A DNA stretch of 63,732 nucleotides from a virus (IMGVR_UViG_3300036770_004125:1-63732); one strand, 5' to 3'. Shown: positions 2,188-47,713, numbered from the stretch's first letter. The notes: generated by a model from the sequence alone, not told the origin. Numbers and translations: made by a program.

Positions 2188-2763
2188 TTAAGTGCCAGCA
2201 TTGCCAGCACCACCGCCACCAGTTCTTTCCCAATATTGAACTTGGAATTCTACAGTAAACTCCTCAATTGTGTCTGAGGTATCATATGAAAGATCAATTT
2301 GAGAAATATTAGTTGGAAAAACATCATAAAATTTGTATACAGCTGAGGGAGTCAAACCACCTCCACTAACGCCTCCAGCTGATGCAAGTCTTTGAAGTTG
2401 TCTTACTTCAGCCTCTGCCATATAATCATTAGGATTATTTGCACCACTAGAATCTGAATATTGTCCAATAAGTTGCATCCATTTTTCCATTGCATTTCTA
2501 ATTTTAAAATCAATATCATTAATTACAGTGATAGTCCAAGTATCAAATGTTCTATCACCAGCAACTTTAAATATGCGCCCTCTAAATGGAACATCTATTG
2601 GTGCAATATTAGATGCAGGAAGAGCAGCTGCTTTACATAACATTGAAAATTCATTACCATCAAATGCTGCGCCACCTTTTGGAGTCATAGTGACCTCAAA
2701 TAAATTAGGTCTAGCACCTCCCCCTTTAAGTGTTGATTTGAACTGTGATAGTGTGTATGGCAT
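2188..2763 (-). CDS. g19: Tail tube protein (gp19)
   Basis: GGARPNLFEV, AGDRTFDTWTITV, IEEFTVEFQVQYW; lies between g18 and g20. Confidence 0.96.
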   Translation of the reverse strand: MPYTLSQFKSTLKGGGARPNLFEVTMTPKGGAAFDGNEFSMLCKAAALPASNIAPIDVPFRGRIFKVAGDRTFDTWTITVINDIDFKIRNAMEKWMQLIGQYSDSSGANNPNDYMAEAEVRQLQRLASAGGVSGGGLTPSAVYKFYDVFPTNISQIDLSYDTSDTIEEFTVEFQVQYWERTGGGGAGNAGT

Positions 2764-31400: not shown

Positions 31401-34400
31401 TTAATAGTAAAATTAATATATTTTTTATTATTAAAATATAGTTGTGGATTATTATCTGGTCCAGTTTCTGATAATTTTACTTCATTATTTGAAATTTTTG
31501 TAACATAATATGATTGCGAAGAAGTCAATCCAACAATCGGGGAATTTTGCGGATAATATACAATTATTTCACCATCAGAGTATCCATGATTAACTATAGT
31601 TAAAGTGTCAGATGCCGTGCTTATCCCTGAAATTTTAGTTTTTTTATTTTGATAACCTATTCCTGAAGATATTATCTCAACAGAACTTATTTTTTTATTG
31701 GAAGAAGTTGATCTAAAAGAATGAACACCAAAACCTTCTTCATAAAATATGACGGTGTTTATTCCTGAAATGGCATCTTGTAAACTATTATGCAATTTAA
31801 CTTTAAAAGAATCTACTATGGAAACATAGTATTCTGAATTTGTGTTTATTCCAAGAACACTTTTTTGATTATTTGTGGTATAAATTACCCTTTCATAATT
31901 TTTAAACCTATGATGTTCAGAAAAATCAATAATATTATTCGTAATATCAACAGTTTGTGAATTAAACTCCGGAGAATTGATTGAGTCAATTAGTCTAACT
32001 TTCGCCTGAGCACCAAAACCATTACCACCACTTATGGTTATCTTTGGTTCTTCAATATAATCAAATCCAGGATCAATAACATCTATTCGTTTTAATTCTC
32101 CTATTACCGAACAATATGCATTACATCCAGTACCAATCAAATCAGTTACTGATAATTGAGGTGGGTTAATTACATCATAATCATTACCTTGTGATGTAAC
32201 AACTATTTCTTCTATTGGACCATAAAAAATCTTATCTGTAGACTTATAATTTAATAATTCAACACCATTTACAAAAATCCCAGTAGTACCGTTATCAGTT
32301 TCTTTTCTATCCGAAACTAGTTCTGTTTTTGTTATTTTTTTGAATAGATTTTGTGACTTCAACTTAAATGAATTCAAGTTGACATCAGCAAATCTTAAAA
32401 GTTCTAATCTAGATTGGTTTAAATTTCCAGTAATGGTGATATAATTTTCTTTAAAAATATTTTCTTTACTTCTTGATAATTTGATTGTATTAGTATCTTC
32501 AACTTTTACATAATAAACTGATGTTGTTAGTCCAACTCCGTCTATCTTAATATTACTCTCAGGAGAAGGTCTAAAAATTATAGCATCTCCAGTATAATAA
32601 CTATGATTTAAAACATTACTATTTCCAGTCGTAATAGAATCAATTACTATTATTTCATTAGATTCTGGTAAAGTTACATCAACAAATCGGTAAGAAAAAT
32701 CATCTATATTAATCGGAGTATTTAAATAACTTGGTAAAGAAGAGGAACTGACATATAAAGAATTGTCAAAATCAATATATGTATTTTGTACATTTGTATT
32801 ATAAGTTTTATAGGTTTCTATTGTATCTGGATCAGAATTAAATACTGTATTTTGATTAACATTGAGTTTTGATATTCTTTTTCTTATTTTAGATGCTAAA
32901 CTTAAAGAGGGAAATTCCTGTTCATTTTCAGGATTTATTTTTGTTACTTTAGAAATAATTTGCTTTGAATTATTAATTTCAGAAACTATTCCATAATATT
33001 TTGTATTAGTAGAGAAAAATATTTCTAATTCATCTCCTTTAACAAAATTATGATTATCAAATAAAGTTATTTTTAAATCAAGAATATTTGTATTTTGTGT
33101 GGGACTTAAATCCTCAATACTTTTAATATCATAATTTGTTGAAATATTAAAGAACCAGTTATTTTCTCTTACTCCCTTACAGTCTTCTCCAAGAGTTTTA
33201 ATGCTTATCACATCACCTTGCTCATAATAAGCATTCGTATTAAAAGAATCAATTCCCGATATAACACCAGTTATTCTTACTCTAACTTCTTCATTATTTG
33301 AATTAAAACCATATGCATAATTATTAATTTTTACTTCTGTACCTTCAGGTATTTCAATGGAAGGTATACCGCTACATCCTAAAAATTGATTTATAACTTT
33401 TGAAGTGTAAGTGATAATATACCTTGTTTCAAAATCACCTTCTAAATTTAAATCAACAACTAATTCTCCGGAGTCTGGAAATCCTATTGTAGAATCTACA
33501 TCCAAATAAGTTAAATTTGGAAAAACTCTACTAGTTAAAATTGTTTTAGGGTGAATTTTAAAATCACTTTTAATTGATCCAAAAACATCAATATCTTTAT
33601 CATAACCAGAATCTAAACTTATAGTGTAATAAATTTTTCCGTTTCTAGAAATTCTTTTCACATCTGATATGGTTCCTCTAGAATCGGAAAATATTCCACT
33701 AGAATCTTTATCTTGATAAAGAGTACCATTAATTAATTCTAAAGGGTCTCCAGAAACAGACTCTACGACTAGATCTTGTGTTACTCTAAATTGAGCATCG
33801 GATGGTTGTATAAGGTAATCTCTTGGTAAGATTATTTTTGGAATAACTCCATATAATGCTCCAAATAAAATTTTAAAAGAACCTTCAGTTCCCTTTGAAG
33901 TATAAAGATTGTTTGATTGTTTTATAAAAAGTCTTTCATTTAAAGATTCATAGAAATCTTTATTTTCTAATCCAGGAACAATTTGCTTTTTAATTTTAAT
34001 AAAAAACTCTTTTAAAAATAAAATGCTGAGATTGAATACTTTAGTTTTTTCTTCAGAAACAATAGATAAATGTTCGGAAGATTCACTTTCAGTAAAAATT
34101 AATTGATCTTCCCTTATGTTATCTTTAAGTGATGTTATTCCACTAAATCCTCTAATACACCCCAAAAATGAGGAAGAAGTTTTATTTGTATAGGTAATAA
34201 TCTCATCATCAATTAAAAGTAATCCATAAGAATCTGGAAATCCTTCAGTTGAATCTACTAAAATTTCAGTATCAAATAAAGTAAGATCGGCATTTAAATT
34301 AGTAAATTCGGTTAAATTTGTTAAATTATCAATTTTTATATAATTATCAATATTTTGAATTATATCTGAAGCACTACCTTGAGATTCTAAGGACAAATAA

Positions 34401-34501
34401 TATTGAGATAGAAACTCAGATACAAGAGGATATTCTTCTCTTATAAATTCTGGAAGTTGATTTTCAATAATTGAACTAATTTTAATTCTGTTTTCTAGCA
34501 T
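25481..34501 (-). CDS. g7: Baseplate wedge initiator gp7-like, N-terminal part
   Basis: 3006 aa starting ENQLPEFIREEYP; SKGTEGSFKILF, HSPIIGWAYDGNPIYGPYG, DSDYYQYFSY; follows g6. Confidence 0.8.
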   Translation of the reverse strand: MLENRIKISSIIENQLPEFIREEYPLVSEFLSQYYLSLESQGSASDIIQNIDNYIKIDNLTNLTEFTNLNADLTLFDTEILVDSTEGFPDSYGLLLIDDEIITYTNKTSSSFLGCIRGFSGITSLKDNIREDQLIFTESESSEHLSIVSEEKTKVFNLSILFLKEFFIKIKKQIVPGLENKDFYESLNERLFIKQSNNLYTSKGTEGSFKILFGALYGVIPKIILPRDYLIQPSDAQFRVTQDLVVESVSGDPLELINGTLYQDKDSSGIFSDSRGTISDVKRISRNGKIYYTISLDSGYDKDIDVFGSIKSDFKIHPKTILTSRVFPNLTYLDVDSTIGFPDSGELVVDLNLEGDFETRYIITYTSKVINQFLGCSGIPSIEIPEGTEVKINNYAYGFNSNNEEVRVRITGVISGIDSFNTNAYYEQGDVISIKTLGEDCKGVRENNWFFNISTNYDIKSIEDLSPTQNTNILDLKITLFDNHNFVKGDELEIFFSTNTKYYGIVSEINNSKQIISKVTKINPENEQEFPSLSLASKIRKRISKLNVNQNTVFNSDPDTIETYKTYNTNVQNTYIDFDNSLYVSSSSLPSYLNTPINIDDFSYRFVDVTLPESNEIIVIDSITTGNSNVLNHSYYTGDAIIFRPSPESNIKIDGVGLTTSVYYVKVEDTNTIKLSRSKENIFKENYITITGNLNQSRLELLRFADVNLNSFKLKSQNLFKKITKTELVSDRKETDNGTTGIFVNGVELLNYKSTDKIFYGPIEEIVVTSQGNDYDVINPPQLSVTDLIGTGCNAYCSVIGELKRIDVIDPGFDYIEEPKITISGGNGFGAQAKVRLIDSINSPEFNSQTVDITNNIIDFSEHHRFKNYERVIYTTNNQKSVLGINTNSEYYVSIVDSFKVKLHNSLQDAISGINTVIFYEEGFGVHSFRSTSSNKKISSVEIISSGIGYQNKKTKISGISTASDTLTIVNHGYSDGEIIVYYPQNSPIVGLTSSQSYYVTKISNNEVKLSETGPDNNPQLYFNNKKYINFTINPESFNHYFNYPPITVILNGKVGTSSTLAQEYYGKVVPVFRGKIQSVFVENGGVGYGSPDIINFDRQPSISLLEGSGAQLTPIIDNGAIKKVIIQSPGLNYKGVPDIIINGDGFGAVLVPVVSNGSIVEVKVISGGFGYTQKGTFLSVLVPGNNAKFKSIIKSWRINLVEKYIKKEKIYSDDGIIINGLNGLQYVHLYPSRSLRSSVYLKTSENTNQNYIADLQLDTSNKEINSIIHSPIIGWAYDGNPIYGPYGFASGNSGPIKLMKSGYTKKSTRLFGPSAEIYPLGFFIEDYEFTNSGDLDESNGRYCKTPEFPDGTYAYFSTFTERTGEGPFLNYKTPVFPYVIGNFYRSEQIQFNFNQQTILDETIFGDKKLLRNTTPYNLLNDRSGYEYIPKPFEDKKQDLEVEFTTSGTIDFINIVNPGDDYKVRDPIIFDDGFINGRVTKIKGKNISSITSYTTTTDIFEFYPYEITGEFIGISSVPHNLYNNSLVTLTSKYEYKKVDRIQVIQNTLSLAEDVNDVNVTGFVTSFRIYGDLDFIIKENDLYSIGSEVVKILNVDRVNYQLRVLRSVNSSISTSHSAGDELTSLSRKVIFNTGITSNFHNYRANDEYYFDPKISVGLGLTSGVGISSTLFFSVNAFNTPITIEKGVETTIYFKNQSDISKYSSGGYVDIVNASNVEYNTTRKEIVSIGSTLIKIDFDSSSFPGTVITANLNKWNVLNIPTKSIYLPKNRINTNDKLIYNSYEGSPISISIDSVNSFELESNSVVYAVRLSDDLIGISTQPVSINEDGEVSGIGTTTNSIVYFSGIGTNTYHSFKTDYPNILSGVLSQNISIVSTSEPHELTLEEIVDINVESGISTTIKLIYNEENRRFVVNPRIVEDINLENNTLQISNHKFKTGEKLIYTEDSPIGGLVNNKMYYAVIIDTNTIGLCDNLFESRKELPNLIDLTSLGQGKLSLINPRIEIIKYQDIIFDVSDSSLSYGSGQLSKSAFDLKLFYDKNFKNEFGTFDLIKSGSIGIGSTSTITLKTKNLPNDLYYSLIPIDLLNTPPNKKEIYIDKEQIEHNKILLINSEIQGKQQIIDYTTNTFLFNTTNPVESLVYDSDNSIISYETDSPNTSGGISKVSVNNSKKLYKKVPKVKEIISENGSGAILEIFTSTIGNVSSNNVKIKDIGFNYSLDTTVRPKCIFPSILKILPFNTFDYIEVTSRGKNYISNPDLIVLDGITNEVVDDVQLKYDIDSNKVSIIQNTKGISELEPSIIPINNDNGFLINDIFYDNISKDVTVILEGQYNDPSTFPFSIGEEVLIENVSVESENDKGYNSENYGYRLFKIKTLTPNFGGSGANFTYSLENLLGSEEIPGDYDTRFSKGTVIPKNYLPEFNSNLKVIEFSKDETVVSSNNSGIVKGWDNENNYLKVISNKDFTVGDILVGQSSNVKAIIENIISFDTYLDIKSNATVKQGWKLETGFLNNNNQRIYDSDYYQYFSYSVESPIDINKWNDVVGNITHTSGFKRFSDLLVQDENFNTGISTSQDLGNYYSESVSSEFINFNCVHDFDLVSENYFITNNKIKSNEIYFDSRILQDYIESIGNRVLVIDDISDKFTTTEPRNFQVIDNFELADIRYKKYFVYVYDILDPTRSECLLVSLLHDDVNGFLNQYAIISSEDSLGYFDFQTEIDRFGQLLYYPSITERKIYKYNTFSFGIGDTLVGVGNTTLEIGDIAKIQYVNTIIAENETDPISLPGISTSQRSYKILITISDKEDSYYQFDEISLLHNNTDVLINDYGDLNNTNFSSSHTSGIVTFSSSIESNELVLKLHPSVGVGNSLFVNAIITSIDSTNTTEGSLDILGNDLTSNFISTSMTGGTPEEKLVFNHSTRYSATYNIILIEDKTNNKFEFIEMTTLLNNSIQESLVVEYGVLNFDGSIGEFTSEINNTNGNFELYFTPYEDISYEIKILSSIIGINSQDGVTTV

Positions 34502-39255: not shown

Positions 39256-39420
39256 CTACTGTCTGTCCAGTTTCTCCTCAATAAAGACCATAAGTTCCCC
39301 GAGGTCAATTCTACAATCCTGCCAGCGAATGGCGGAACCGTACTCACTCAGGAACTCCTCAGCAACGTTGCAGCAGTTGGCAAAGTTGAACGCTTGGGAG
39401 TAAGGAATGGTGCCGAACAT
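39256..39420 (-). CDS. Hypothetical protein
   Basis: Read manually: MFGTIPYSQAFNFANCC...EEKLDRQ (54 aa). Confidence 0.6.
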   Translation of the reverse strand: MFGTIPYSQAFNFANCCNVAEEFLSEYGSAIRWQDCRIDLGELMVFIEEKLDRQ

Positions 39421-39443
39421 GAGAATCAAGAGAGTGTGAAAGT

Positions 39444-39473
39444 GAGGCAGTTTAGTGTCATGCCTCAGGACAG
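39444..39473 (-). ncRNA. H-type pseudoknot motif, copy 1 of 4 (others at 44068-44095, 46607-46634, 46860-46887)
   Basis: TGTC-CTGAGGCAT-GACA-CTAAAC-TGCCTC; stems covary between copies. Confidence 0.6.
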
Positions 39474-39485
39474 AATTTGTAGAAA

Positions 39486-39656
39486 CTAGTACCCTGCCAC
39501 GGCGGCGGCAGTTTCTACGATTGCCTCAGTGCTCACGCCCCAGTGAATATAGGGCGAAGGGCGGGAACCGTTACGCTCCTGATCAGCGGTGATGACCCAC
39601 TTGAGAGTGCGGGTGGCAAGGTCGGAGCAGGGAGTGTAGAGGGCGAAGATCGGCAT
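39486..39656 (-). CDS. Cassette ORF, hypothetical
   Basis: MPIFALYTPCSDLATRTLKWV... (56 aa), downstream of TAGAAT at 39681-39686. Confidence 0.6.
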   Translation of the reverse strand: MPIFALYTPCSDLATRTLKWVITADQERNGSRPSPYIHWGVSTEAIVETAAAVAGY

Positions 39657-39680
39657 CGGTCTCTTGCGGTTGACTCTTGA

Positions 39681-39742
39681 ATTCTACAGGATAGGAGGGG
39701 ATTTGGGAACCCCCCCCTTGTGCCAGTTGTCAGACTGCCACC
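39681..39742 (-). promoter_or_regulatory. Representative cassette promoter: palindrome, GC-rich spacer, -10 box
   Basis: Minus strand AACTGGCACA-N32-TAGAAT with no TTGACA at -35; same layout in front of most cassette ORFs. Confidence 0.75.
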
Positions 39743-39972
39743 CAGTAAGTGTTGACCTGAGTAGGGGTCGCCTCACCGATCTCCCGCTGCTCTGCCATGA
39801 TCCACTGATCACGAGGGCGGGCGGAACGCCAACCCATCAACTGATGGTAGCACTCCTCAAGAGTCCGGGGATAGGCGACGGTGGAGACGATCTTGCCATT
39901 CTTCACCATCGCCACAGCGAACGGGTAGCGGGTGGAGCAGAGGATGGTCTTAAGGGGGGTGGGGTTGGTCAC
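39730..39972 (-). CDS. Cassette ORF, hypothetical
   Basis: 80 aa; stop codon lies inside the palindrome at 39719. Confidence 0.6.
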   Translation of the reverse strand: MTNPTPLKTILCSTRYPFAVAMVKNGKIVSTVAYPRTLEECYHQLMGWRSARPRDQWIMAEQREIGEATPTQVNTYWVAV

Positions 39973-40045
39973 GGGTGGTTCCCTTTGGTTGACTCTTGAA
40001 TTCTACAGGATGGGGGTCGCTTCCGCAACCCCCTCAGTGGGCGGT

Positions 40046-40210
40046 TTAGAAAGCGACCTGAGACCAGTAGAGGTCATAAAGAGCGGCGAGGGTCTCACGC
40101 TCCCGCTGCTGGCGGTAGTGTGCCCAGGACTGATGCTCAACGGGGCGCAGGGCGCGGATGCGGCGGGCGCTGCAGCGCATCGCGTTCTCTGCCCAGGTGT
40201 GGTTGATCAT
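40046..40210 (-). CDS. Cassette ORF, hypothetical
   Basis: MINHTWAENAMRC...; start taken downstream of the -10 box. Confidence 0.55.
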   Translation of the reverse strand: MINHTWAENAMRCSARRIRALRPVEHQSWAHYRQQRERETLAALYDLYWSQVAF

Positions 40211-40292
40211 GGTGTCTCTTGCGTGTTGACTTCTGAATTCTACAGGATGGGGAGACCGTTTCCAATCCCCCCGTGTGCAGGTTAACCAACTG

Positions 40293-40406
40293 TCACAGTT
40301 GACCTTTGCGACCCAGTGCAGCGATCTCAGCAGCGGTGGCGATGAGATCACCCCAGACCCACACCAGTTGGCGGGTGGCGATGTCGCAGGCGGCGGAGAA
40401 AATCAT
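40293..40406 (-). CDS. Cassette ORF, short paralog of 39486..39656
   Basis: MIFSAACDIATRQLVWV... (37 aa); stop codon in the palindrome at 40274. Confidence 0.5.
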   Translation of the reverse strand: MIFSAACDIATRQLVWVWGDLIATAAEIAALGRKGQL

Positions 40407-40475
40407 GGTGTCGTTTGCGTGTTGACTGAATCATTGTAGCAGGTCGGGGGAGGGGGTCAACCCTCCCCGTGGGGA

Positions 40476-40706
40476 TCACGCCCAGGACGGGATCGCCATC
40501 CACGCCTCTGCCTGCCCGATCTCCTCCGCTTCCAGCGCCTCGGCAGCAGCAGCGGGGATCGGGGTGCCAGCATTGAACAGACCCACCAAGATGTCCAGCA
40601 TCACGCCATCATCCCAGCAGTAGCGGTGGTCAATCTCAACCTGGATGCCCTCCCAGAAGGCGACGAAGGCGGGGAAGTCAAAGCAGGTCTCGGTGGTGAC
40701 GGTCAC
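40476..40706 (-). CDS. Cassette ORF, hypothetical
   Basis: 76 aa, GTG start after a TACAAT box. Confidence 0.55.
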   Translation of the reverse strand: MTVTTETCFDFPAFVAFWEGIQVEIDHRYCWDDGVMLDILVGLFNAGTPIPAAAAEALEAEEIGQAEAWMAIPSWA

Positions 40707-40776
40707 GGGTCGCGTTGCGTGTTGACTGAATCATTGTAGCAGGTGGGAGGGCACCGTTGCGGGTGCCCTCTGGGGA

Positions 40777-40956
40777 TCATCCCCCCATCGCCTCTTTAAG
40801 GGCATCGTATGCTGCCAGGTAGTGGTCAGCGTCTTTGTAGTTGCCCTTGATTTGTTCCTCACAGGCAAGGGAAAGCACTGCAACCCGGATGGTGTCCCAC
40901 TTGCCCTGGGGAAGGGTGATGGTGGCGGGGGTGGCGGGGTTCCAGGTGGCGGTCAT
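40777..40956 (-). CDS. Cassette ORF, hypothetical
   Basis: Read manually: MTATWNPATPATITLPQGKWDTIR...EAMGG (59 aa). Confidence 0.6.
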   Translation of the reverse strand: MTATWNPATPATITLPQGKWDTIRVAVLSLACEEQIKGNYKDADHYLAAYDALKEAMGG

Positions 40957-41029
40957 GAGGTCTCTTGCGTTGACTTCTGAATTCTACAGGATGCGGTGGG
41001 GGATCTGAGTCCCCCCTTGTGCCAGTCGC

Positions 41030-41326
41030 TCAACCGTCCACCAACTGCCTAGCGCACTCCTTCATAATACAAACTGCGCCAGCGAGAGTAGGATAGTCTC
41101 CGCATTCTCTCAGGAGTTTGGCACTCTCAGCGGGGACAGGAATTGAGATAGCATCCCAAATCTCAAGCGGAATGTCATTAAAATACTTTTCCTTTGACTG
41201 CTCCAATCGGTGAATTCCGATGTTATTGATCAACCGCAGTTTATGCGCGTTAGTGACAAACTGGGCGTAGTATGCACGATGGACTTGATGACCGCCAGTG
41301 GCAAGATACTCTTTGCGGGTGATCAT
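41030..41326 (-). CDS. Cassette ORF, hypothetical
   Basis: MITRKEYL...HRAYYAQFV...FNDIPLEIWD. Confidence 0.7.
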   Translation of the reverse strand: MITRKEYLATGGHQVHRAYYAQFVTNAHKLRLINNIGIHRLEQSKEKYFNDIPLEIWDAISIPVPAESAKLLRECGDYPTLAGAVCIMKECARQLVDG

Positions 41327-41398
41327 GGTGTGGGTTCGTTTGAACTGAGTCAATTGTAGCGGGTCGGTGGGGGGATCTGAGTCCCCCCGTGTGCCAGT

Positions 41399-41566
41399 TT
41401 AGGCAGTGACCTCCATCCACTCTTGATCGTTGCAGAAGATCACGATGGGGGCACCGTGCAGTTCCACCGACCAGTCGAAGGCAACATCGACTGCGTGATC
41501 CTCAGAGGTGAAGAACTCACGATCCTCGGGGGATGCCTTGGGGGCAGCAGACCAGGAAACGAACAT
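41399..41566 (-). CDS. Cassette ORF, hypothetical
   Basis: MFVSWSAAPK...AVDVAFDWSVE. Confidence 0.6.
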   Translation of the reverse strand: MFVSWSAAPKASPEDREFFTSEDHAVDVAFDWSVELHGAPIVIFCNDQEWMEVTA

Positions 41567-41639
41567 GGGAGGAATCCCTGACGACTCGATCATCCTACAG
41601 CATGGTGGGCACCGTTGGGGGTGCCCAGTTCACAAACTG

Positions 41640-41888
41640 TCACATCATCGAAACAACCCGCATGATGGTAGAAACCTGCACCGGAGTTTGCCACCCGATT
41701 ACATCTTCCAACATGTTGTTGTCGGGTCTGATGATAGCAACCTCAAAAGTGTCGTTTTCGATGTTACCGTACAGACCAGAACCTTTCGGACCTGAAACTA
41801 CACTCACTGCCCACTTGTTGGGGAAAGTGTGCAGTGCAACCGTAGCACCTTCGATAACATGATCCCGAAAGTTCAGAGTGGAGAACAT
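41640..41888 (-). CDS. Cassette ORF, hypothetical
   Basis: MFSTLNF...FPNKWAVSVV...GLYG...TFEVAII. Confidence 0.7.
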   Translation of the reverse strand: MFSTLNFRDHVIEGATVALHTFPNKWAVSVVSGPKGSGLYGNIENDTFEVAIIRPDNNMLEDVIGWQTPVQVSTIMRVVSMM

Positions 41889-41959
41889 TGTCCTGTCCGA
41901 TTGACTGAAACAACTATAAGGGGTGGGAGGGGGCAGTGTGCCCCCCAGGTGGACACCTA

Positions 41960-42277
41960 TCAAACTGTCACAAGATCCTGCCAGGCACGGTAGGTTTCAG
42001 TAACCTTGCGGGCGAACTTGATCAGTTGAGGATAACCCTCAGTGCGACACCAAACATAACAAATTTGAAGAAAGTTCCAAACTTTCGTGAGAGTTTGAAT
42101 GGTAGCATCCTTGCCACCTTGCTGATACCATTGAACAAACTTTTCAGTGAGAACATAAACAACGGCAGCGATGGTGAGAATAATGGTCACAAACTGTTTC
42201 AGGAGTTTGTGATAATCAACCTTTGAAAGTTGCTGAATCAGGGCATCAGCGGGCGGGAAGTTGGCGGTGGTTTGCAT
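41960..42277 (-). CDS. Cassette ORF, membrane-anchored hypothetical protein
   Basis: MQTTANFPPADALI... with one hydrophobic segment; stop codon in a palindrome. Confidence 0.65.
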   Translation of the reverse strand: MQTTANFPPADALIQQLSKVDYHKLLKQFVTIILTIAAVVYVLTEKFVQWYQQGGKDATIQTLTKVWNFLQICYVWCRTEGYPQLIKFARKVTETYRAWQDLVTV

Positions 42278-42426
42278 TGTTCTGGGGTGGCGAGGGAAAA
42301 TGTAGAGGCGTCTCAACCACCCCCATAAGTTACCAGCATCGTGGGCGATCCGCAAGGGGGTCTGTGCCAGTTTGGAAAGTGGCACAGTGGTGGTTGCCAG
42401 GGGGTCGTGGGGTGCTATGATATGTT

Positions 42427-42535
42427 CATAAGCAAAGGGGAGCGGGGGCGCCGCGATGATACAAACCAAGTCACTCACCCTGCCTTAAAATAAGTTAGTA
42501 TAAAGTATAAAAAAAGAGGGCGATTGTGCCCTCTT
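42427..42535 (+). ncRNA. Candidate small RNA, copy 1 of 5 (others ~43160-43268, 44741-44848, 45717-45826, 48792-48899)
   Basis: + strand -10 box 29 nt after a palindrome; AAGGG...CCCT closing stem; AT-rich tract; terminator hairpin. Confidence 0.55.
42509..42535 (-). terminator. Rho-independent terminator (similar hairpins near 43241, 44825, 45798, 48872)
   Basis: AAGAGGGC-ACAATC-GCCCTCTT followed by a T tract on the minus strand. Confidence 0.8.
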
Positions 42536-42543
42536 GATTATAT

Positions 42544-43002
42544 TCACCAGAGACCTTCGTTCACCAGGCGATTGTAAAGAGTGTTAGCAAGTTTGCCGCA
42601 GTGATCACATGCCTTAGCGTACTTAATCTCAGACTTGAGAGCATACTTATCGGTGGTTTTGTAACCGCCGAACTTGTAACGATGTACTGCACTTACCAGT
42701 TTGAGCAGTTGGCGCTTTTTCAGATCTTCGCCCGCCATTTTATAGATGGGGATGAAGAAACGATAATCCTTAATTTCACGGCACTTGGCAAGTTTGTCAA
42801 CGATAACCTTAGATTCTTTGCCCCCAAAATAGGGAGTAAGTTCAACCATCAGGAAAGCATTGAAAGGTGCCAGTTGATCTGCCTTTTTCTTTTGATCCTC
42901 TTGAATCTCATTCAGTGCCTCACTGATAGTTTCAACACTCTTGAGAAAACTATCCTGCAGTTGCTGCAGTTGGGCGGTCAGAGTTTCAATGGTCGCAGTC
43001 AT
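42544..43002 (-). CDS. Cassette ORF, hypothetical (coiled-coil N terminus)
   Basis: MTATIETLTAQLQQLQ... (152 aa). Confidence 0.7.
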   Translation of the reverse strand: MTATIETLTAQLQQLQDSFLKSVETISEALNEIQEDQKKKADQLAPFNAFLMVELTPYFGGKESKVIVDKLAKCREIKDYRFFIPIYKMAGEDLKKRQLLKLVSAVHRYKFGGYKTTDKYALKSEIKYAKACDHCGKLANTLYNRLVNEGLW

Positions 43003-43271
43003 GATAGACTCTTGGGTTGGTGGTGGGTCGGGGCGTTTCGTTTCCCCCCGATGCACATAAGATACGGCAGATTCCGGGGCACCACAAGGGGGTGTGTGCC
43101 AGTTCAGAAACTGTCCCCTAAGACGGTCTTAGGGGTGCCCGATGCCTTACAATAAGATCACAAGGGAAGGGAACGCGGGCGGCGTGATGATACAAACCAA
43201 GACACTTACCCTGCGATAAAATAATACAATTATAAAGTATAAAAAAAGGGGGCGATTGTGCCCCCATTTGA

Positions 43272-43409
43272 TCACTCTTCAGGGCCATAAGCACACTCCA
43301 GAGAGTATGCTTCCAGTTCCTGATCATCCTCATAATAGGATGCCCAATCCTCCTCGGTGGGGATATACTCCTCGTCAATCTGCTGGTAGTCGGTGAAGGA
43401 ATAGGTCAT
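43272..43409 (-). CDS. Cassette ORF, highly acidic peptide
   Basis: MTYSFTDYQQIDEEYIPTEEDWASYYEDDQELEAYSLECAYGPEE (45 aa). Confidence 0.6.
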   Translation of the reverse strand: MTYSFTDYQQIDEEYIPTEEDWASYYEDDQELEAYSLECAYGPEE

Positions 43410-43479
43410 GGGGTGTTCCCTTGGTTGACTCTCTTAGATTAGGGGATGGGGGGTGGAAAGTCAACCCCCCTGTGCCAGT

Positions 43480-43719
43480 TCAGAAAGCGACCAGTTGATC
43501 AATCTCCCACTGGGGGACAGTGTATACTGTGCCGCCGCAGTTCTTTTTCAACCACGCATTGATGTGCTTAGTGGTGGTGGTGCTGTAGGACTGCTCAGTC
43601 CGCATCCAACCCCGACCAGGCACCAGTGCCGCAACTGGGGTGCTGTAGGAGAACAGAACGCAGGTTCCGTTTGCCAGTTCAACCTCAGTGCTGGTGGTGG
43701 TGACTTGATTGACTTTCAT
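43480..43719 (-). CDS. Cassette ORF, hypothetical
   Basis: VLFSYSTPVAA...YSTTTTKHINAW. Confidence 0.75.
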   Translation of the reverse strand: MKVNQVTTTSTEVELANGTCVLFSYSTPVAALVPGRGWMRTEQSYSTTTTKHINAWLKKNCGGTVYTVPQWEIDQLVAF

Positions 43720-43798
43720 GGTTCTGGTGGTGAACTGAGATCATTATAAGGGCACCAAGGGAACCACTGCGAGTCCCCTTGTGCCACTTGTCAGGGTG

Positions 43799-44035
43799 TC
43801 ACACTGCGGCGAGTGCTTCCACGGGGATCAGCACTTGCTCGCGGATCCAGCGGTGATAGGTTTGACCGATGGATGCCTCAGGATTGCTCAGGAAACTAAT
43901 CAGTTCCTGCTCATCATCAGTGACAAAATTATACACAGCATCAGGATTGCTCCGGAAAGAAACCTTAACATCCTGACCATCAATCTCAACGGAAGCGATG
44001 GCGGAAGATTGAGACTCGGTGAAAGTGAACAGCAT
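43799..44035 (-). CDS. Hypothetical protein, KTSC-like start
   Basis: SSAIASVEI...VSFRSN...YNF. Confidence 0.6.
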   Translation of the reverse strand: MLFTFTESQSSAIASVEIDGQDVKVSFRSNPDAVYNFVTDDEQELISFLSNPEASIGQTYHRWIREQVLIPVEALAAV

Positions 44036-44341
44036 AATAGAATAAGACCTGTAAGGTTTGTAAGATTGAGCAGTTTAGAGTCTTACTCAGGACTGTTTAA
44101 TCTTACGATTCTGCCCAGAGTTGGTGAATCTTACTCATGACATTGCTATAGTCATCAATGGGATCATGTTCATCATCCTCGCAAAACTCACGATTGTTTG
44201 CGACCAAAGAGTAGATCAGATCCCACTCAGATTCAGTAAAGAACTCTTTGATGGTTTGACTCATGGGGTTCGTTTGAACTGAGGTTATTGTAGGGGGTGG
44301 GGGGATCTTATGGCATCCCCCCTGTGTCAGTTTCTAGAGTG

Positions 44342-44614
44342 TCACACCCCCATCAGAATGGCACGGATGCGGTCACGCTTGCGGGGAGGATTGACCAGAC
44401 TCCAGCGGTTGCGCTGGAGTCGCTGCCCGTGGCGCTTCATAGATGCCCACAGGATGCCCTCTTGCTCCATCTCAACCATAATGGCATGGATGGTGCCCTT
44501 GTGGGAGCGGGGATCCATCCCCAGCATCCACACCAGATCGGAGCAGGTCGTCTCGGGGTTCACCGCCAGCACGGCACGGATGCGGGAACGGATGGAGGAG
44601 TTCAGGGAGCGCAT
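44342..44614 (-). CDS. Small basic protein, possible winged-helix DNA-binding fold
   Basis: IRAVLAVNPETTCSDLV...IHAIMVEMEQEGIL...RNRWSL. Confidence 0.55.
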   Translation of the reverse strand: MRSLNSSIRSRIRAVLAVNPETTCSDLVWMLGMDPRSHKGTIHAIMVEMEQEGILWASMKRHGQRLQRNRWSLVNPPRKRDRIRAILMGV

Positions 44615-44856
44615 TTGGGGTTCGTTTGAACTGAAGTCAGTATAGGGGGCAGGATGGGGGCAGTGCTGGGGTCGGTGTGCCAGTTCATAAGGTGGCACAG
44701 CAGGGTGGCACAGTGCCCCATGATGCCCTATACTAAGATCACAAGGGAAGAGGGAGCGGGGGCGCCGCGATGATACAAAACAAGACACTTACCCTGTCAA
44801 ATTATATTATTAGAATTATAATGAAAAAGAGGGCGATTGTGCCCTCTTGTTTATAC

Positions 44857-45591
44857 TCAGGCGGTCACGAGTTTCTTACTGTAACCGCTGAACTGTTTGT
44901 TAGCACGACGGGCGCGAATCGCCTTGCCCCATTCAGAACCTGCTTTCTGAGTTCCGTGTACTAACAGCGCAAACGGTTTGTCACCAAAACAGTGAGAATC
45001 GTCGTGATCAACTTCCAAACCTGCGGCGTTAGCATCATCATCCGTCATAAACACTTTGCTATAACGGGTGAAGAATCCTTCATCAATTAGATGATCCCAC
45101 TTGCCACCATAGGATGCGGTCAGGTAGAAGTTGGCAGGCAACTTAAAGTTGAGAAAGAGTTGCAAACTCTTGCTGTAGCAATAGAATTTCAGATCAGGAT
45201 TGCGGTGAGCAACTTCAATCCAGGCATCCAAATAAGCACCGGAGAAAAAGTCACCAGACTCGTGAATCCGCACGAGTTTGGTATTTTTAGTGCGATGATG
45301 TTGGATGCTGTCGTTGATCAGATCCGCAGCAGATCCATTCTGGATTGCATCAACAATCATCTTAAGATTGCTGGCACGATTCTCAAAAACCGCATCATAC
45401 TGCACCTCAGATGATGCAGCAAAACAACGAAACTCGGTGTGTTCGCCATCTTGAATGGTGCGCTTTCCGTTAGCATCAACCACGGCAAAACTCTTGCAAA
45501 ACATAGCACCGGGGCAAGTCTTGCCAGCGGGCAGGTTGAAGATCAGAGTTTGCTTGCCGAGTTTGGCGTTACCTTTGGAAAAGTTCAGCAC
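44857..45591 (-). CDS. GP88-like phage protein
   Basis: GNAKL...FNLPAGKTCPGA..C, VRIHESGDFFS, FYCYSKS. Confidence 0.75.
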   Translation of the reverse strand: MLNFSKGNAKLGKQTLIFNLPAGKTCPGAMFCKSFAVVDANGKRTIQDGEHTEFRCFAASSEVQYDAVFENRASNLKMIVDAIQNGSAADLINDSIQHHRTKNTKLVRIHESGDFFSGAYLDAWIEVAHRNPDLKFYCYSKSLQLFLNFKLPANFYLTASYGGKWDHLIDEGFFTRYSKVFMTDDDANAAGLEVDHDDSHCFGDKPFALLVHGTQKAGSEWGKAIRARRANKQFSGYSKKLVTA

Positions 45592-45829
45592 GGGAGGAAT
45601 CCCTGACGACTTCCATAAGTTACAGCAGAATCAGCACCAGTGCCAGGGTGTTGTGTCAGTTTGGAAAGTGGCACAGCGACTGCCCAATGGTGCTGGCGAT
45701 GCCTTAGAATATAGGAAAGAAAGAAAGGGACGGGAATCCCGACGACGACAACTTATAAGTAACCTGCCCTACCATAAAATAATCTAATATAAAGAATAAA
45801 AAAAGGAGAGTATAACTCTCCTCTTTGTG

Positions 45830-46018
45830 TTAGAATTCAATCTCCCAATCAGTGTCCCGATTCAGATTGACCCAGAAGTGGTATTTGTGATTCATGGATG
45901 TAACAAATACCTTGTCACCTTTGTTCTGTTCAATGATAACTTCATCCACAGAATCCATCAGGTTAGCAAACCGATTCTTTGCTTTCTTAGACTTAGGAAT
46001 GACAAATGCGGTTTCCAT
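45830..46018 (-). CDS. Cassette ORF, hypothetical
   Basis: METAFVIPKSKKAKNRFANLM... Confidence 0.65.
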   Translation of the reverse strand: METAFVIPKSKKAKNRFANLMDSVDEVIIEQNKGDKVFVTSMNHKYHFWVNLNRDTDWEIEF

Positions 46019-47287
46019 GAGAACCTCATCAACAGTGGTAGTATGGCAGGGGATCATGAGAATCACAACCCCCATTGTGCCAGTTTGGAAAGTGTCACAT
46101 CAGAAGACCATTTCTTCCAGTGTGGGTTGATCTTGCATTGCATCAGCATAACCACCAGCGATGTCAGCATCAACATCAGAATCAAAATCGCTCGTGATTG
46201 TGTCAAGAATTGACAGAATCTGTTCGCCATTCTGACCAGCGCGAAGCATACCGAGAAGCATTTCTTTAGTCATGATAAGAAAGAATAAGATGGTAAGGTG
46301 TGTAAGATGTGTAAGACTATAAGATTATCAGTTTCCGTCAGATTCTTCAGAAACTTCCACGACTTCAATCAGAGGAATGGGAATCCCATCAGGAGTCCAT
46401 TGAATGAGTTCAGATTCAAACAGAATGTCAAACATGATCAGAAGTCGTTACCAGAGTTGAGAAAGTCAGCGAAAGAAGCATCATCATAAGAATCCTCATC
46501 ATCATCAAAGATGGTAGGATCCTCTACCAATGCCTCATAAGGATCGTAATACAGTTCTTCGGTGTAAGCAGTCATGAGAGTGAGTTGCGAACAAAAGAAT
46601 TATAGCAGGCAGTTTAGAGACTTGCCTAGGTCTGATGTGCCAGTTAATCAGATGGCACTCGTGCCCTTGCTGACCCAGAGTGCCAGTCGCATCGTGCTCG
46701 CTTTCTTCACGGATTGCGAAGGGCGACCAGTAGCGTGGGCGAAGGCTTGCAGATCTTTACGGGTCACATCGGACACCATACCGATCAGAATCTTACGGGC
46801 ACCAGTCAGGAGTTGCTGTTGAGTCATGGAAGTTCGGTGTTGAACAAGAGAATTGTAGCAGGCAGTTTAGAGACTTGCCTAGGTCTGGTGTGCCAGTTGT
46901 CAAAGTGTCCTTATGACCTACTTTCCATAAACTCTGCCCAAGCATTAGCATCTGACTCAAATTGAAACAGAGCAATGCCTCCACCCATTTCTTCATCTAT
47001 AACCTGATACCATTGCATCAGAACTTCATTGTCAAGATGATAAACAGAATCAACAGAAAAACGAGGTTCAGTCATTGAGATAAGGTTCACGGAGGTCTTC
47101 TACGAATGCAAGTGCCTGCATCAATTCAGGGTCTTCATACTGTCTCCATTGTTTCAATGAATCCATTGCCTCTTGAATTGCGAAATGAATGTATTCAAGT
47201 TTTTCGTAGTCAGTCATGAGTTTCCTCAGGAACAAATACAATGTAGTAGGGATCTTATGAGAACACAAGACCCCTTGTACCAGTTTC

Positions 47288-47713
47288 TCAACTGTCCATT
47301 TTCACATGCTGCTCCAGAATACCATAAACATCATCAGAACCAATGAATGTGCCATCTTTCTTATAATAAGAAGTGCTACATTCAACACCAGAACGAGAAT
47401 CAATGGTAGCAGAATTGATCTCCATGATGTTAGAAGTCATCACAGGAAGAAACTGATCAATCAACCAATCCCACACTTCACTGTTGCTATTGAGTTCTTC
47501 AGTGTCACATTCAATCAGAAGTTTGCCACCACTGATGCGAACATAATCAGCAAAGTCTAGATCAAGGTTATCATTAGAATCAAGACCATAAAACTCAAAG
47601 ATAGAGTTTTCCTCTTGCACACAACGAACAGAAAGTCCATCCAGATAGGATTGAAGATCAAAATTGTCAACAACTTCACACTTAGCGGTGGCAACAAATT
47701 GAGTGTAGGACAT
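47288..47713 (-). CDS. Hypothetical acidic protein
   Basis: 141-aa ORF; stop codon inside the palindrome at 47276. Confidence 0.65.
   Translation of the reverse strand: MSYTQFVATAKCEVVDNFDLQSYLDGLSVRCVQEENSIFEFYGLDSNDNLDLDFADYVRISGGKLLIECDTEELNSNSEVWDWLIDQFLPVMTSNIMEINSATIDSRSGVECSTSYYKKDGTFIGSDDVYGILEQHVKMDS

Follow-up and report, generated by a model that had tools for sequence, protein, structure and literature searches.

The window analyzed here, a viral DNA stretch of 63,732 nt (IMGVR_UViG_3300036770_004125) that represents a fragment of a T4-like cyanophage myovirus, contains four minus-strand copies of an RNA pseudoknot of 27 to 29 bases, and this raises the question of what kind of element it is and what it does between phage genes. 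All four strings reported in the initial annotation are present on the minus strand, but their 5' ends had been drawn 1 nt too long (corrected limits in Table 1). As described there, the copies are intergenic. Each lies 9 to 25 nt after a stop codon and 24 to 32 nt before a start codon. Copies 3 and 4 belong to a duplicated cassette of about 75 nt; between AACTGGCACA and the end of the 5' leader the two are near-identical, and their flanks have diverged. They are one recent duplicate, so the window holds three independent versions of the element. The core of copy 1 recurs unchanged at another locus (L029), and a further one (L004) has CAGGCA/TGCCTG, in which both bases of the sixth stem-2 pair differ from copy 1. 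Copy 2 is among the commonest variants of the family: among the listed matches whose 3' strand is TGCTCA, CTGAGTAx loops are the commonest.

Table 1. Pseudoknot copies and neighboring features in the window (paired strands and loops written 5' to 3' on the minus strand)
Feature	Position	Strand	Remarks
Copy 1	39444..39472	-	9-nt loop form; limits read from sequence
Copy 1, stem 1	39472-39469 with 39459-39456	-	TGTC with GACA
Copy 1, loop	39468-39460	-	CTGAGGCAT
Copy 1, linker	39455-39450	-	CTAAAC
Copy 1, stem 2	39466-39461 with 39449-39444	-	GAGGCA with TGCCTC
Copy 2	44068..44094	-	Loop CTGAGTAA
Copy 2, stem 1	44094-44091 with 44082-44079	-	AGTC with GACT
Copy 2, linker	44078-44073	-	CTAAAC
Copy 2, stem 2	44088-44084 with 44072-44068	-	GAGTA with TGCTC; one U.G pair
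Copy 3	46860..46886	-	Loop CTAGGCAA
Copy 3, stem 1	46886-46883 with 46874-46871	-	AGAC with GTCT
Copy 3, linker	46870-46865	-	CTAAAC
Copy 3, stem 2	46880-46876 with 46864-46860	-	AGGCA with TGCCT
Copy 4	46607..46633	-	Core same as copy 3; within duplicated cassette
ORF upstream of copy 1	39486..39656	-	56 aa; stop ends 14 nt before stem-1 core
ORF upstream of copy 2	44103..44264	-	53 aa; stop ends 9 nt before core
ORF upstream of copy 3	46911..47090	-	59 aa; stop ends 25 nt before core
ORF between copies 3 and 4	46648..46827	-	59 aa; start 32 nt past copy 3, stop ends 15 nt before copy 4 core
AACTGGCACA box	46889..46898	-	Directly 5' of copy 3; 36 matches (≤1 mismatch) vs 2.87 expected
AACTGGCACA box, twin	46636-46645	-	Before copy 4
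TACAAT, -10-like box	46852..46857	-	2 nt past copy 3 stem 2; putative promoter, read from sequence
TATAAT, -10-like box	46599-46604	-	Copy 4; putative promoter, read from sequence

A covariance model that encodes stem 1 only was run unfiltered over the whole window and returned exactly four matches, with 47.5 bits for copy 3, 47.1 bits for copy 4 and 38.1 bits for copy 2; copy 1, the one window copy left out of the training alignment, still scored 32.6 bits, and the next best match reached 9.0 bits. Searching the window for an 11-mer core with up to two mismatches gave matches at chance level (13 versus 13.96 expected), and nested folding of the four copies yielded weak z-scores (-3.1, -1.5, -1.1 and -1.1). 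Taken alone, the evidence from the window is thin.

Relatives were found by pattern searches of viral contigs and phages and keep the pairings in both stems, confirming the compensatory changes first described from the window. In the covariation scans of viral contigs, the tested part of the element was left free in the pattern. With the 5' arm free, a complementary arm was present in 34 of 35 distinct matches. An alignment of 37 rows had 93.8% of its cells paired (20 to 39% in slid controls) and double changes in 7 of 10 pairs, and none of 500 shuffles reached its covariation score. In a set of 95 rows among the matches listed, for which the pattern constrained neither stem 2 nor the middle part of stem 1 and no row was dropped, 87.8% of cells were paired versus 24 to 42% in slid controls and 159 cells showed double changes versus 59 ± 7, again with a score reached by 0/500 shuffles. 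In these 95 listed rows, the middle pair of stem 1 is AU in 48, UA in 33, CG in 5 and GC in 1, while the outer pair is kept only partly (57/95); columns 12/26 of stem 2 hold CG 44, UG 25, UA 6, GC 4 and AU 3, and three further pairs covary beyond them. The loop-closing pair C6-G15 occurs in 37/37 rows, with the C free in the first pattern, pairing demanded of the rows from a later regular expression, and the pair fixed in later scans.

With the loop left free, bases 3 to 7 matched the fixed 3' strand in 80 to 81 of 81 contexts among the matches listed; in the same contexts, the first loop base was always C, the second U (78) or C (3), the second-last A (80/81) and the last variable (U 40, A 29, C 10, G 2). 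The pair A13-U25 is present in 95/95 listed rows, where the pattern fixed it, and in 80/81 listed contexts with the loop free. The linker CTAAAC had been called invariant, which is too strict for the family: once the linker was left free, AAAC was conserved in 127 of 134 contexts among the matches listed and the two preceding bases varied. The base after AAAC is U in all window copies, S-H38 and ME3, and was fixed by the pattern in the linker-free scan.

U.G pairs are possible on the sense strand only (25 of 95 rows at columns 12/26, among the matches listed), and a 3.5-kb contig of an RNA virus has two tandem copies 3' of its polymerase gene (RdRP_3, E = 1.4e-11). Because of these strand-specific G.U pairs and the RNA-virus copy, the element acts at the RNA level on the sense strand. 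The H-type pseudoknot is thus real and its fold is well supported by covariation in relatives, in agreement with the compact, cis-acting RNA proposed initially. In this fold, a stem 1 of 3 to 4 bp is closed by the invariant C-G pair, and 5 to 6 bases of an 8-nt loop pair with the sequence that directly follows the NNAAAC linker; the knot is tight, at about 27 nt, because this A-rich linker must span stem 1.

Each of three scans of viral contigs recovered at least 117 to 118 loci, and its presence was confirmed in cultured phages that infect Synechococcus, Acinetobacter, Roseobacter-group bacteria, Lactobacillus, Staphylococcus and Arthrobacter, as well as in a crAss-like phage. The phages that carry it are unrelated, with hosts from six or more phyla or classes; one RNA virus carries it too, and three complete phage genomes have one strong match each. 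Flanking genes share no common family (22 upstream and 22 downstream protein singletons). Rfam 15 gave no match at the gathering threshold in the window and none in 14 loci totaling 135 kb; around copies 3 and 4, it gave only two chance snoRNA matches (E = 2.5 and 5.1). Our literature search found no published report of the element in phages. The presumed novelty holds with respect to Rfam, but a published family exists: the element is a phage member of the coremin family that differs in form, not a wholly new kind.

Coremin (xrRNA_C), with its "Watson-Crick-type" form xrRNA_WCC, is known from beny-, cucumo- and many other RNA viruses, and this plant-virus RNA was shown experimentally to stall Xrn1 one nucleotide before its hairpin hp1 (Dilweg, Olsthoorn and co-workers: PMC6546385, PMC10520033, PMC10321173). 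The phage element can be aligned in register with the published coremin sequence CGUC[CGAA]GACGUUAAACUAC. According to the available portions of PMC6546385, pairing rather than sequence counts in the 3 to 4 bp of hp1 (base pairs 2 and 3 were disrupted and restored, base pair 4 is dispensable); the loop-closing pair is C-G, with U-A tolerated and G-C abolishing resistance; the loop follows YGAD (4 nt) or YGNNAD (6 nt); and the spacer is tolerant at U13U14, with A15-A17, C18, U19 and A20 essential. The phage element likewise has a paired 3- to 4-bp hairpin that includes a G-C pair, a pair free to covary and a pyrimidine-purine closing pair (C-G), and a loop that begins with a pyrimidine and has A second-last. 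Its spacer appears to correspond in part, two variable bases being followed by AAAC-U; in StB12 and a crAss-like phage, it even has coremin's UUAAAC. Both have tandem copies in 3' UTRs, and octaloops exist in both. In xrRNA_WCC, loop positions 6-8 pair with spacer positions 20-18, A7-U19 and G6-C20 having been proven by mutation and rescue, and one substitution at spacer 18-20 is tolerated if loop pairing results (2023 paper; PMC6546385, PMC10520033, PMC10321173). The phage element keeps this register, the second-last loop A facing U19 and the preceding loop base position 20, whereas pair 8-18 is not kept and the last loop base is free.

Several features set the two apart. The second loop base is U in the phage element where the coremin consensus has G (the last base is mostly D), although the available text on coremin (PMC6546385, PMC10520033, PMC10321173) describes a functional GRV octaloop that also violates this consensus. 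The equivalent of A20 is mostly G and paired, the loop has 8 to 9 nt, and stem 2 comprises 5 to 6 Watson-Crick or wobble pairs versus 0 to 3 in coremin. Both types of coremin resist Xrn1 only if a second hairpin, hp2 (at least 4 bp of any sequence), directly follows the spacer; hp2 is absent from the phage element, in which the 3' strand of stem 2 takes the place where hp2 would begin. Furthermore, the carriers are double-stranded-DNA phages of bacteria, which are not known to have Xrn1, and the element lies 6 to 20 nt behind stop codons in polycistronic units, unlike coremin. The family link to coremin is well supported.

Other compact H-type knots, i.e., luteovirus frameshift knots, the preQ1-I riboswitch and the T4/T2 gene 32 leader, measure 27 to 34 nt and resemble the element in their first loop of 1 to 2 bases and an A-rich loop crossing stem 1. 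The phage element differs in having neither a slippery site or extension frame nor a fixed downstream gene, and preQ1 and other Rfam models gave no match to the window or the copy 3/4 region. Known frameshift pseudoknots do not stall Xrn1, according to the 2023 paper on coremin. Ring-forming xrRNAs are larger (about 45 to 70 nt). As far as the available text of PMC12397905 and PMC7603331 goes, these RNAs of flaviviruses, dianthoviruses, poleroviruses and ST9a (class 3) share with the element a pseudoknot between apical loop and 3' tail, a proposed one-way mechanical block and a location between genes or in 3' UTRs, in some cases as tandem copies; they differ in having additional helices and a defined ring that encloses the 5' end, and have no sequence likeness to it. 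The accessible portion of PMC7603331 reports that the flaviviral fold resists the 5'-3' exonucleases Xrn1, Dxo1 and RNase J1 and that the ring model predicts passage from the 3' side.

The element typically begins 6 to 20 nt past the upstream stop codon. Among the matches listed, a frame of at least 40 codons ends 5 to 20 nt before the core in 93 of 146 distinct elements (64% versus 6.5% of random positions), distances from stop to core break off abruptly below 6 nt (19 cases at 6, 1 at 5), stops are mostly TAA (59/93), and the distance to the downstream start is loose (median, 33 nt; interquartile range, 23 to 110). Beyond the stop, each of the three frames stays open only briefly (medians of 15, 5 and 7 codons), so there is no recoding product. 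The 5' ends of tRNAs follow the element by 5, 5, 8 and 18 nt in four loci and by about 3 nt in phage Amigo, and two type III hammerhead ribozymes lie 3' of it with cleavage sites 5 to 7 nt past it; a cleavage site is thus found directly 3' of the knot in at least seven loci. Elsewhere, three copies follow a tRNA instead of an ORF, at distances of 0, 2 and 19 nt, and the second tandem copy on the RNA-virus contig is 46 nt beyond the stop. The flanks are G-poor and unstructured: over the 26 nt that follow stem 2, the minimum free energy (MFE) has a median of -0.6 kcal/mol versus -2.0 and -2.35 in controls, with values of -5 or lower in 14 of 142 elements versus 22 and 26 in controls, among the matches listed. 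In the 12 nt upstream, -10-like hexamers occur at about twice expectation (19/48). A role as translation enhancer, also suggested at first, is disfavored because copies adjoin tRNA genes and precede hammerhead ribozymes, and because the regular distance is that to the upstream stop, not the downstream start.

In the window, AACTGGCACA is the upstream element of the region's hairpin-plus-promoter-like modules, and copies 3 and 4 occupy the slot held by a GC-rich stem-loop in about 17 sister modules. As noted initially, these two copies fill the spacer between the palindrome and the -10-like box, AACTGGCACA sitting 31 nt upstream of TACAAT or TATAAT with no -35 box 17 nt upstream; copies 1 and 2 have neither box and lie outside the modules. 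In the PeSL (promoter-early stem-loop) cassettes of T4-type phages, a plain-hairpin terminator is joined to a sigma-70-type early promoter (-35, N17, -10), according to the available portions of PMC2839356 and PMC4122927. Copies 3 and 4 are similar in their stem-loop slot within repeated modules between small variable-region ORFs and in the cassette duplication, but PeSLs are plain hairpins and the pseudoknot is an element in its own right with a much wider distribution.

We propose that the element is a transcribed, self-contained coremin-class pseudoknot (xrRNA_C, "Watson-Crick-type") that blocks 5'-threading enzymes such as RNase J or RNase E, a reading to which we give an even chance of being correct. 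The knot would stand as near behind the ORF as a terminating ribosome allows and act as a mechanical roadblock to enzymes threading RNA from the 5' side; decay begun in the upstream cistron would halt there, and the RNA behind it would survive. In the cyanobacterial host, the target would be RNase J, a 5'-3' exonuclease, or else RNase E as it scans from a 5' end. A block of RNase J had been suggested before, and the in-register alignment with coremin, an experimentally demonstrated Xrn1 staller, lends it real support; this is a likeness between family members rather than an experiment in bacteria. RNase J (TIGR00649) scored above the family cut-off in both element-carrying bacterial genomes tested. 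Against the nuclease block count the absence of hp2, for which the longer stem 2 may be a putative stand-in, and the fixed distance to the upstream stop with a loose downstream distance. Cleavage just 3' of the knot leaves no downstream RNA attached that could be protected. The -10-like boxes after copies 3 and 4 also count against it; transcripts initiated there, if the promoters are real, would be without the pseudoknot. A further point against it is the carrier ME3, whose host, Acinetobacter, is not known to have RNase J.

Alternatively, the knot could serve the upstream RNA as a 3'-UTR element. Termination or cleavage shortly past it would leave it close to, or right at, the 3' terminus of the upstream message, where it would shield that message from 3'-5' exonucleases such as PNPase, RNase II or RNase R or mark 3'-end formation. 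The tight tie to the upstream stop and loose one downstream would fit, as would the tRNA and hammerhead cleavages, which leave the knot with the upstream RNA alone, and the stem-loop slot filled by copies 3 and 4, the PeSL stem-loop being described as a terminator in the accessible text (PMC2839356, PMC4122927). We nevertheless consider this unlikely: blocking from the 5' side is all that has been tested for the family, and the ring model, in the available part of PMC7603331, predicts passage from the 3' side. Most loci have no terminator or structure within 26 nt downstream, so there is no sign of a 3' end close by; a simple hairpin would suffice, leaving the invariant C, AAAC and the knot unexplained, and the three copies that follow a tRNA are not behind an ORF.

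The sharp 6-nt limit fits the reach of the ribosomal helicase site, and the ribosome is the sole candidate target common to all hosts. A knot at the mRNA entry site of a ribosome on the stop codon might block sliding or re-initiation (cistron uncoupling) or tune termination, and the available text on coremin (PMC6546385, PMC10520033, PMC10321173) reports stalling of scanning ribosomes and promotion of -1 frameshifting. We judge this improbable, as the limit is equally explained by a knot escaping translational unwinding together with genome compaction, stops are mostly TAA with short extensions and no recoding product, and copies adjoin tRNAs or, in the tandem case, lie well beyond the stop.

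Also improbable in our view is a binding site for a protein or RNA polymerase (a phage regulator, an endoribonuclease site or a put-like antitermination RNA) in which the conserved bases are contacts. The invariant single-stranded bases (loop C and AAAC), the G-poor unstructured flanks and the low copy number in complete genomes agree with it, but the unrelated phages, the RNA virus and the diverse flanking genes do not, and the conserved bases are those needed for protein-free in vitro Xrn1 stalling in the available portions of PMC6546385. A DNA-level signal (phage promoter, operator palindrome or DNA hairpin) is close to refuted: copy 1 resembles a T7/SP6-like promoter core at first sight, -10-like hexamers are enriched upstream and copies 3 and 4 lie inside promoter-like modules, but the window is from a T4-like myovirus with 0/13 scanned ORFs matching RNA polymerase, both stems covary, which a duplex protein site does not need, U.G pairs become C.A on the opposite strand, a copy exists in an RNA virus, and a start 6 to 20 nt past stop codons leaves no room for a promoter.

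If the nuclease-block reading is true, phages may use the enzyme-stopping trick of plant-virus coremin inside bacteria.

The window is a T4-like cyanomyovirus fragment, rated about 30% complete, in which the portal, sheath, large terminase, baseplate-wedge and head-completion genes all lie on the minus strand and whose single weak DNA match is a Synechococcus phage. The four pseudoknot strings reported in the initial annotation are present in it, and a re-reading of their exact limits removed one base from the 5' end of each. A covariance model encoding stem 1 alone (R1), run unfiltered over the whole window, returned exactly these four sites, with the next best at 9.0 bits. Copies 3 and 4 form one duplicated cassette of ~75 nt, so that the window offers three independent versions of the element. 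A search for the 11-mer core with up to two mismatches found 13 occurrences in the window versus 13.96 expected, i.e., chance level, and nested folding, which cannot model a pseudoknot, gave z-scores of -3.1, -1.5, -1.1, and -1.1 for the four copies. On its own, the window is weak evidence for the element. Since one strong copy was found in each of three complete phage genomes, four copies within 7.5 kb are unusual.

Coordinates of elements and other features in the window
Feature	Position	Strand	Remark
Copy 1	39444-39472	minus	R1 32.6 bits; outside training set
Copy 2	44068-44094	minus	R1 38.1 bits
Copy 3	46860-46886	minus	R1 47.5 bits
Copy 4	46607-46633	minus	R1 47.1 bits
AACTGGCACA, examples	46889-46898, 46636-46645, 44676-44685	minus	
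AACTGGCACA, examples	43471-43480, 41390-41399, 39719-39728	minus	
~83-nt repeat	42437-42519, 43168-43250, 44751-44833	plus-strand coordinates	72-73% identity to reference copy
~83-nt repeat, fourth copy	near 45700-45830		by eye
Giant ORF	25481-34501	minus	3006 aa, YHYH domain
Giant ORF	13076-20608	minus	2510 aa, DUF4815

Copies 1 and 2 are located between small ORFs, while copies 3 and 4 sit inside two box-hairpin-TACAAT-like modules, precisely at the slot held by the hairpin in sister modules. The box AACTGGCACA, which matched 36 times (up to one mismatch) on the minus strand of 39700-63620 versus 2.87 expected, heads ~17 such intergenic modules in the 39- to 47-kb region. It is often preceded by GTGxCAC, which contains the stop codon. 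Next come a GC-rich hairpin that lacks a U-run, then, 31 nt after AACTGGCACA, a TACAAT or TAGAAT box, and finally a conserved leader and ATG. The modules resemble a PeSL-like cassette, but AACTGGCACA is too distant for a -35 box; an activator site or a hairpin-dependent promoter is possible. A repeat of ~83 nt or more was also observed, preceded on the minus strand by a hairpin-plus-U-run terminator and an AT-rich stretch and leading into a GC-rich conserved block. It had no Rfam match in a search of the window; a gene for a small RNA and a mobile regulatory cassette are both possible readings. The G+C content of the stretch of small ORFs with the four copies (39400-47300) is, as judged by eye, much higher than that of the structural genes, which points to an island that was acquired or turns over fast. 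Interspersed with the tail and baseplate genes are two giant ORFs.

Stronger evidence came from relatives of the element in viral contigs (loci with L-numbers). A first scan, with stem 2 and the stem-1 3' arm fixed and the 5' arm free, yielded 43 loci, among which 35 sequences were distinct. The free arm was complementary in 34 of them (GAC/GTC, GTC/GAC, or GCC/GGC), the exception being the sequence of L018/L019, which is without stem 1 and was set aside as false or doubtful. When only stem 1 and the linker were required in the 43 loci, stem 2 varied and still paired (GGGTA/TATCC, GGGTA/TGCCC, and GAGTA/TGCTC). Two further paired variants came from BLAST, AGGTA/TGCCT (Synechococcus phage S-H38) and AGACA/TGTCT (Acinetobacter phage ME3). 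A first formal count started from 45 distinct regular-expression matches and kept 37 rows, after removal of four with fewer than 4/5 stem-2 pairs, one with a loop unlike the family (L014:10425), and three with 9-nt loops (window copy 1, L004, and L029) whose gap was misplaced by MAFFT. The latter gain a covarying sixth stem-2 pair (GAGGCA/TGCCTC versus CAGGCA/TGCCTG). Across the 37 rows, 93.8% of cells were paired versus 20 to 39% with slid partners, both sides had changed in 7/10 pairs, and none of 500 shuffles reached the covariation score.

Because these 37 rows were partly selected on the features tested, three further viral-contig scans left the tested part free, each returning at least 117 to 118 loci. 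Scan (a), with stem 2 and the middle of stem 1 free, gave at least 117 loci and at least 97 distinct new elements. Among the 97 matches listed, the middle pair was complementary in 89, all five stem-2 pairs formed in 72, and the middle pair together with at least four of five stem-2 pairs was found in 87. With all 95 distinct 32-mers among the matches listed and none dropped, 87.8% of cells were paired versus 24 to 42% with slid partners, 159 double-change cells were counted versus 59 ± 7, and the covariation score was reached by 0/500 shuffles. The compensatory changes initially proposed for both stems are thus kept across relatives. The CTAAAC linker, described there as invariant, is so only in part: in scan (b), with both stems fixed and the linker free, AAAC ended the linker in 127 of 134 distinct contexts among the matches listed, while its first two bases varied. 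Scan (c), with stem 1, linker, and 3' strand fixed and the loop free, gave 81 contexts among the matches listed, in which loop base 1 was C in 81/81, base 2 was U in 78/81, bases 3 to 7 matched the 3' strand in 80 to 81 (with U or C opposite G at base 6), and base 8 was free. These comparisons show that the predicted H-type pseudoknot is real, a conserved compact knot in the transcript.

The element acts at the level of RNA. U·G pairs were frequent in the scan (a) rows (25/95 at one stem-2 position, among the matches listed) and would be C·A on the opposite strand, which argues for a function in the sense-strand RNA; in addition, the element follows open reading frames and shares their strand. 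One carrier, the 3,468-nt contig L006, encodes an 814-amino-acid protein with an RdRP_3 domain (E = 1.4e-11; ORF 269-2710, minus strand), followed within the last 280 nt by two elements in tandem (244-275 and 191-222), and the TAG stop codon of this ORF lies inside the loop of the first. L006 is an RNA-virus contig among the viral contigs; in its protein, the N-terminal region is acidic and one stretch is hydrophobic. Two copies each were also seen in contigs L121, L148, L107, L237, and L251; in L121 and L148 they are in tandem, 57 to 60 nt apart, as in L006 and in RNA-virus coremin, a viral RNA that stalls the exonuclease Xrn1.

A strict 20-base pattern occurred at only three places in 185,579 prokaryote species genomes, which indicates that the element is virus-borne; in the bacterial class to which the Butyrivibrio contig L051 belongs, R1 matched in at least 4 of 151 genomes. 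Carriers verified among cultured viruses are phages of cyanobacteria (S-H38, R1 45.5 bits), Proteobacteria (Lentibacter phage ICBM1, 38.9; ME3, 37.8; Roseophage SIO1, 35.7), Firmicutes (Lactobacillus phage phig1e, 32.5; Staphylococcus phage StB12, 30.4, linker UUAAAC), and Actinobacteria (Arthrobacter phage Amigo, 19.5, with a 2-nt insertion at coremin's insertion-tolerant spot), plus the crAss-like cr7_1 (25.4, linker UUAAAC). Matches in Stx2a-converting phages (36 records) were rejected as a partial string without the 5' arm. phiSUSP1 (6 bits), P-TIM68 (15 bits, stem 2 shifted), and the Lactobacillus Lpa804 group (30.7 bits, but only 3/5 stem-2 pairs) are doubtful. One 40-nt variant gave no BLAST matches in E. 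coli genomes, an insensitive search that does not imply absence.

No Rfam family fitted the element in searches of the window and the loci. Its pattern does, however, align with coremin (xrRNA_C), described as a short RNA from RNA viruses of plants and fungi that resists Xrn1 (PMC10520033). The motif printed there, CGUC[CGAA]GACGUUAAACUAC and then a second hairpin, hp2 (PMC10520033, PMC6546385), aligns without shift to the phage element, N-G-N-C [C-U-N-N-N-Y-A-N] G-N-C-N-N-N-A-A-A-C-U. According to the available text on coremin mutants (PMC6546385), the closing pair is an obligatory C-G, with G-C killing resistance; complementarity suffices in the inner two pairs and the fourth is dispensable; loop base 1 is a pyrimidine; and changes are tolerated at U13U14 but not at A15-A17, C18, or U19, which are essential. 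Judged by sequence, these rules appear to fit the phage element feature by feature. In the text available, the coremin authors suspected a loop-spacer pseudoknot that was not found in the natural motif, and for Watson-Crick-type variants (xrRNA_WCC) a pair between the second-last loop A and U19 and one between the preceding loop base and position 20 are described as proven (PMC10321173). The phage element has the same register, lengthened to five to six pairs. In agreement with L006, the coremin papers also describe tandem copies in 3' UTRs, 5- to 8-nt loops, and carriers among marine, tombus-like, and noda-like viruses.

The phage element departs from coremin in three respects: its loop base 2 is U instead of G; the equivalent of coremin A20 is mostly a paired G; and hp2, which according to the available text both coremin types need for Xrn1 resistance (PMC6546385, PMC10321173), is missing. 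Folding of the 26 nt after stem 2 revealed no hp2 equivalent, this stretch being less structured than controls, and the flanks are G-poor. The accessible text of the coremin papers reports no solved coremin structure (PMC10520033, PMC6546385, PMC10321173). We provisionally file the element as a natural, hp2-less, long-stem-2 form of the already known coremin class carried by DNA phages. The word "phage" is absent from the main coremin paper (PMC10520033) and a 2025 class-3 xrRNA paper (PMC12397905), in the text available. No report of the element, of coremin, or of exoribonuclease-resistant RNA in phages was found in the main texts of the open-access literature; the motif string returned primer lists only, and xrRNA together with phages and prokaryotic hosts returned only genome-editing reviews. 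Exoribonuclease-resistant RNAs are not known outside RNA viruses of eukaryotes, where they are a defense against Xrn1; the phage element would be a near-minimal member of one such class.

By analogy, we see about an even chance that the knot is a roadblock in bacteria, where it would stop an enzyme threading RNA from the 5' side. The alignment shows that the element has, at least in sequence, the features by which coremin stalls Xrn1 in a protein-free assay. RNase J would be the obvious candidate for the blocked enzyme, and RNase E, which scans from a 5'-monophosphate, is a second. RNase J1 is listed among the 5'-3' exonucleases resisted by the flaviviral xrRNA fold in the accessible text of PMC7603331. 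RNase J is encoded in both tested bacterial genomes carrying the element (2/2). The hosts of the verified cultured carriers are, as far as known, mostly from RNase J-bearing groups and none is enterobacterial, with ME3 (Acinetobacter) a possible exception; this host-range argument carries little weight, as only two variants served as BLAST queries in sampling the carriers. For the window, Rho was set aside as a candidate for the blocked motor, since cyanobacteria are not known to have Rho.

The main counterevidence to the roadblock is the missing hp2 together with loci at which the RNA would be cut just behind the knot. This favors a role at the 3' end of the upstream message, which the knot would shield or define. 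tRNA genes begin 5, 5, 8, and 18 nt past the element in four loci and ~3 nt past it in Amigo; in three others a tRNA ends 0, 2, and 19 nt before it. Putative type III hammerheads in L051 (2285-2336; 30.2 bits, E = 1.2e-4) and L171 (7784-7838; 46.7 bits, E = 1.7e-9), both below the Rfam gathering score of 48.5, begin where stem 2 ends, at or inside its last bases. At such loci RNase P or the ribozyme would leave the knot on the upstream RNA. In L171 the two folds may compete, as 3 nt of the stem-2 3' strand also belong to stem III of the ribozyme. We regard this 3'-end role as unlikely, albeit the most probable of the alternatives. In one phage lineage (L005, L014, L016, L021, L022, L028, L041, and L043-L045) two more conserved hairpins frame the element, AGGGTAATCCCT-like a few nucleotides upstream and GCTAGACACTAGC-like directly after, followed by ~40 conserved nt; here the element is possibly one part of a longer non-coding RNA.

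The position of the element follows stop codons rather than particular genes. A frame of at least 40 codons ends 5 to 20 nt before the stem-1 core in 93/146 distinct elements (64%) versus 6.5% at random positions of the same loci, and below 6 nt the counts drop abruptly (19 cases at 6 nt, 1 at 5); in seven cases the frame ends on a TAG within the loop. Spacing to the following start codon varies widely (median, 33 nt; quartiles, 23 and 110). Upstream genes were identified as SSB, DNA polymerase A, Hsp20, DUF932, and an RdRp, and record annotation names ribonucleotide reductase and SSB; flanking proteins form no common family, with 22 singletons on each side. The knot lies at a distance that a ribosome terminating on the stop codon just fails to reach. 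A ribosome-directed role would draw on the ability of coremin, described in the accessible text, to stall scanning ribosomes and promote frameshifting (PMC10520033, PMC10321173), but recoding itself, as readthrough or frameshift, is excluded by the predominance of TAA (59/93 stops) and short extensions past the stop (medians, 15, 5, and 7 codons), and we consider such a role improbable. A protein or polymerase site is a minor possibility. A T7/SP6- or N4-type phage polymerase promoter was rejected, as 0/13 scanned ORFs matched a polymerase, the window is T4-like, and both stems covary. A fixed -10 box upstream was likewise rejected, with only ~2-fold, unfocused enrichment (19/48 within 0 to 11 nt). 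That the element serves as a DNA signal is highly improbable.

The positional rule of at least 6 nt behind a stop codon is unusually clear, which makes the function directly testable. Even with another role, such as a 3'-end shield or ribosome insulation, the element would be a very widespread, unannotated structured phage RNA. If the roadblock does stop bacterial nucleases, it would constitute a new layer of phage gene expression, segment-wise mRNA stability within polycistronic units, as well as a ready-made 27-nt stabilizer for synthetic biology and a natural experiment in which dozens of stem-2 variants fix the coremin tertiary pairing. Somewhat short of an even chance, we think, is the further claim that double-stranded DNA phages of many host phyla carry a true xrRNA of coremin lineage or solution, directed against RNase J or 5'-end-tethered RNase E. 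In that case, the covariation in phages would supply the long-sought pseudoknot register of coremin, a 5- to 6-bp stem 2 would be able to replace hp2, and xrRNA would be a cross-domain viral device and not an Xrn1-specific countermeasure.
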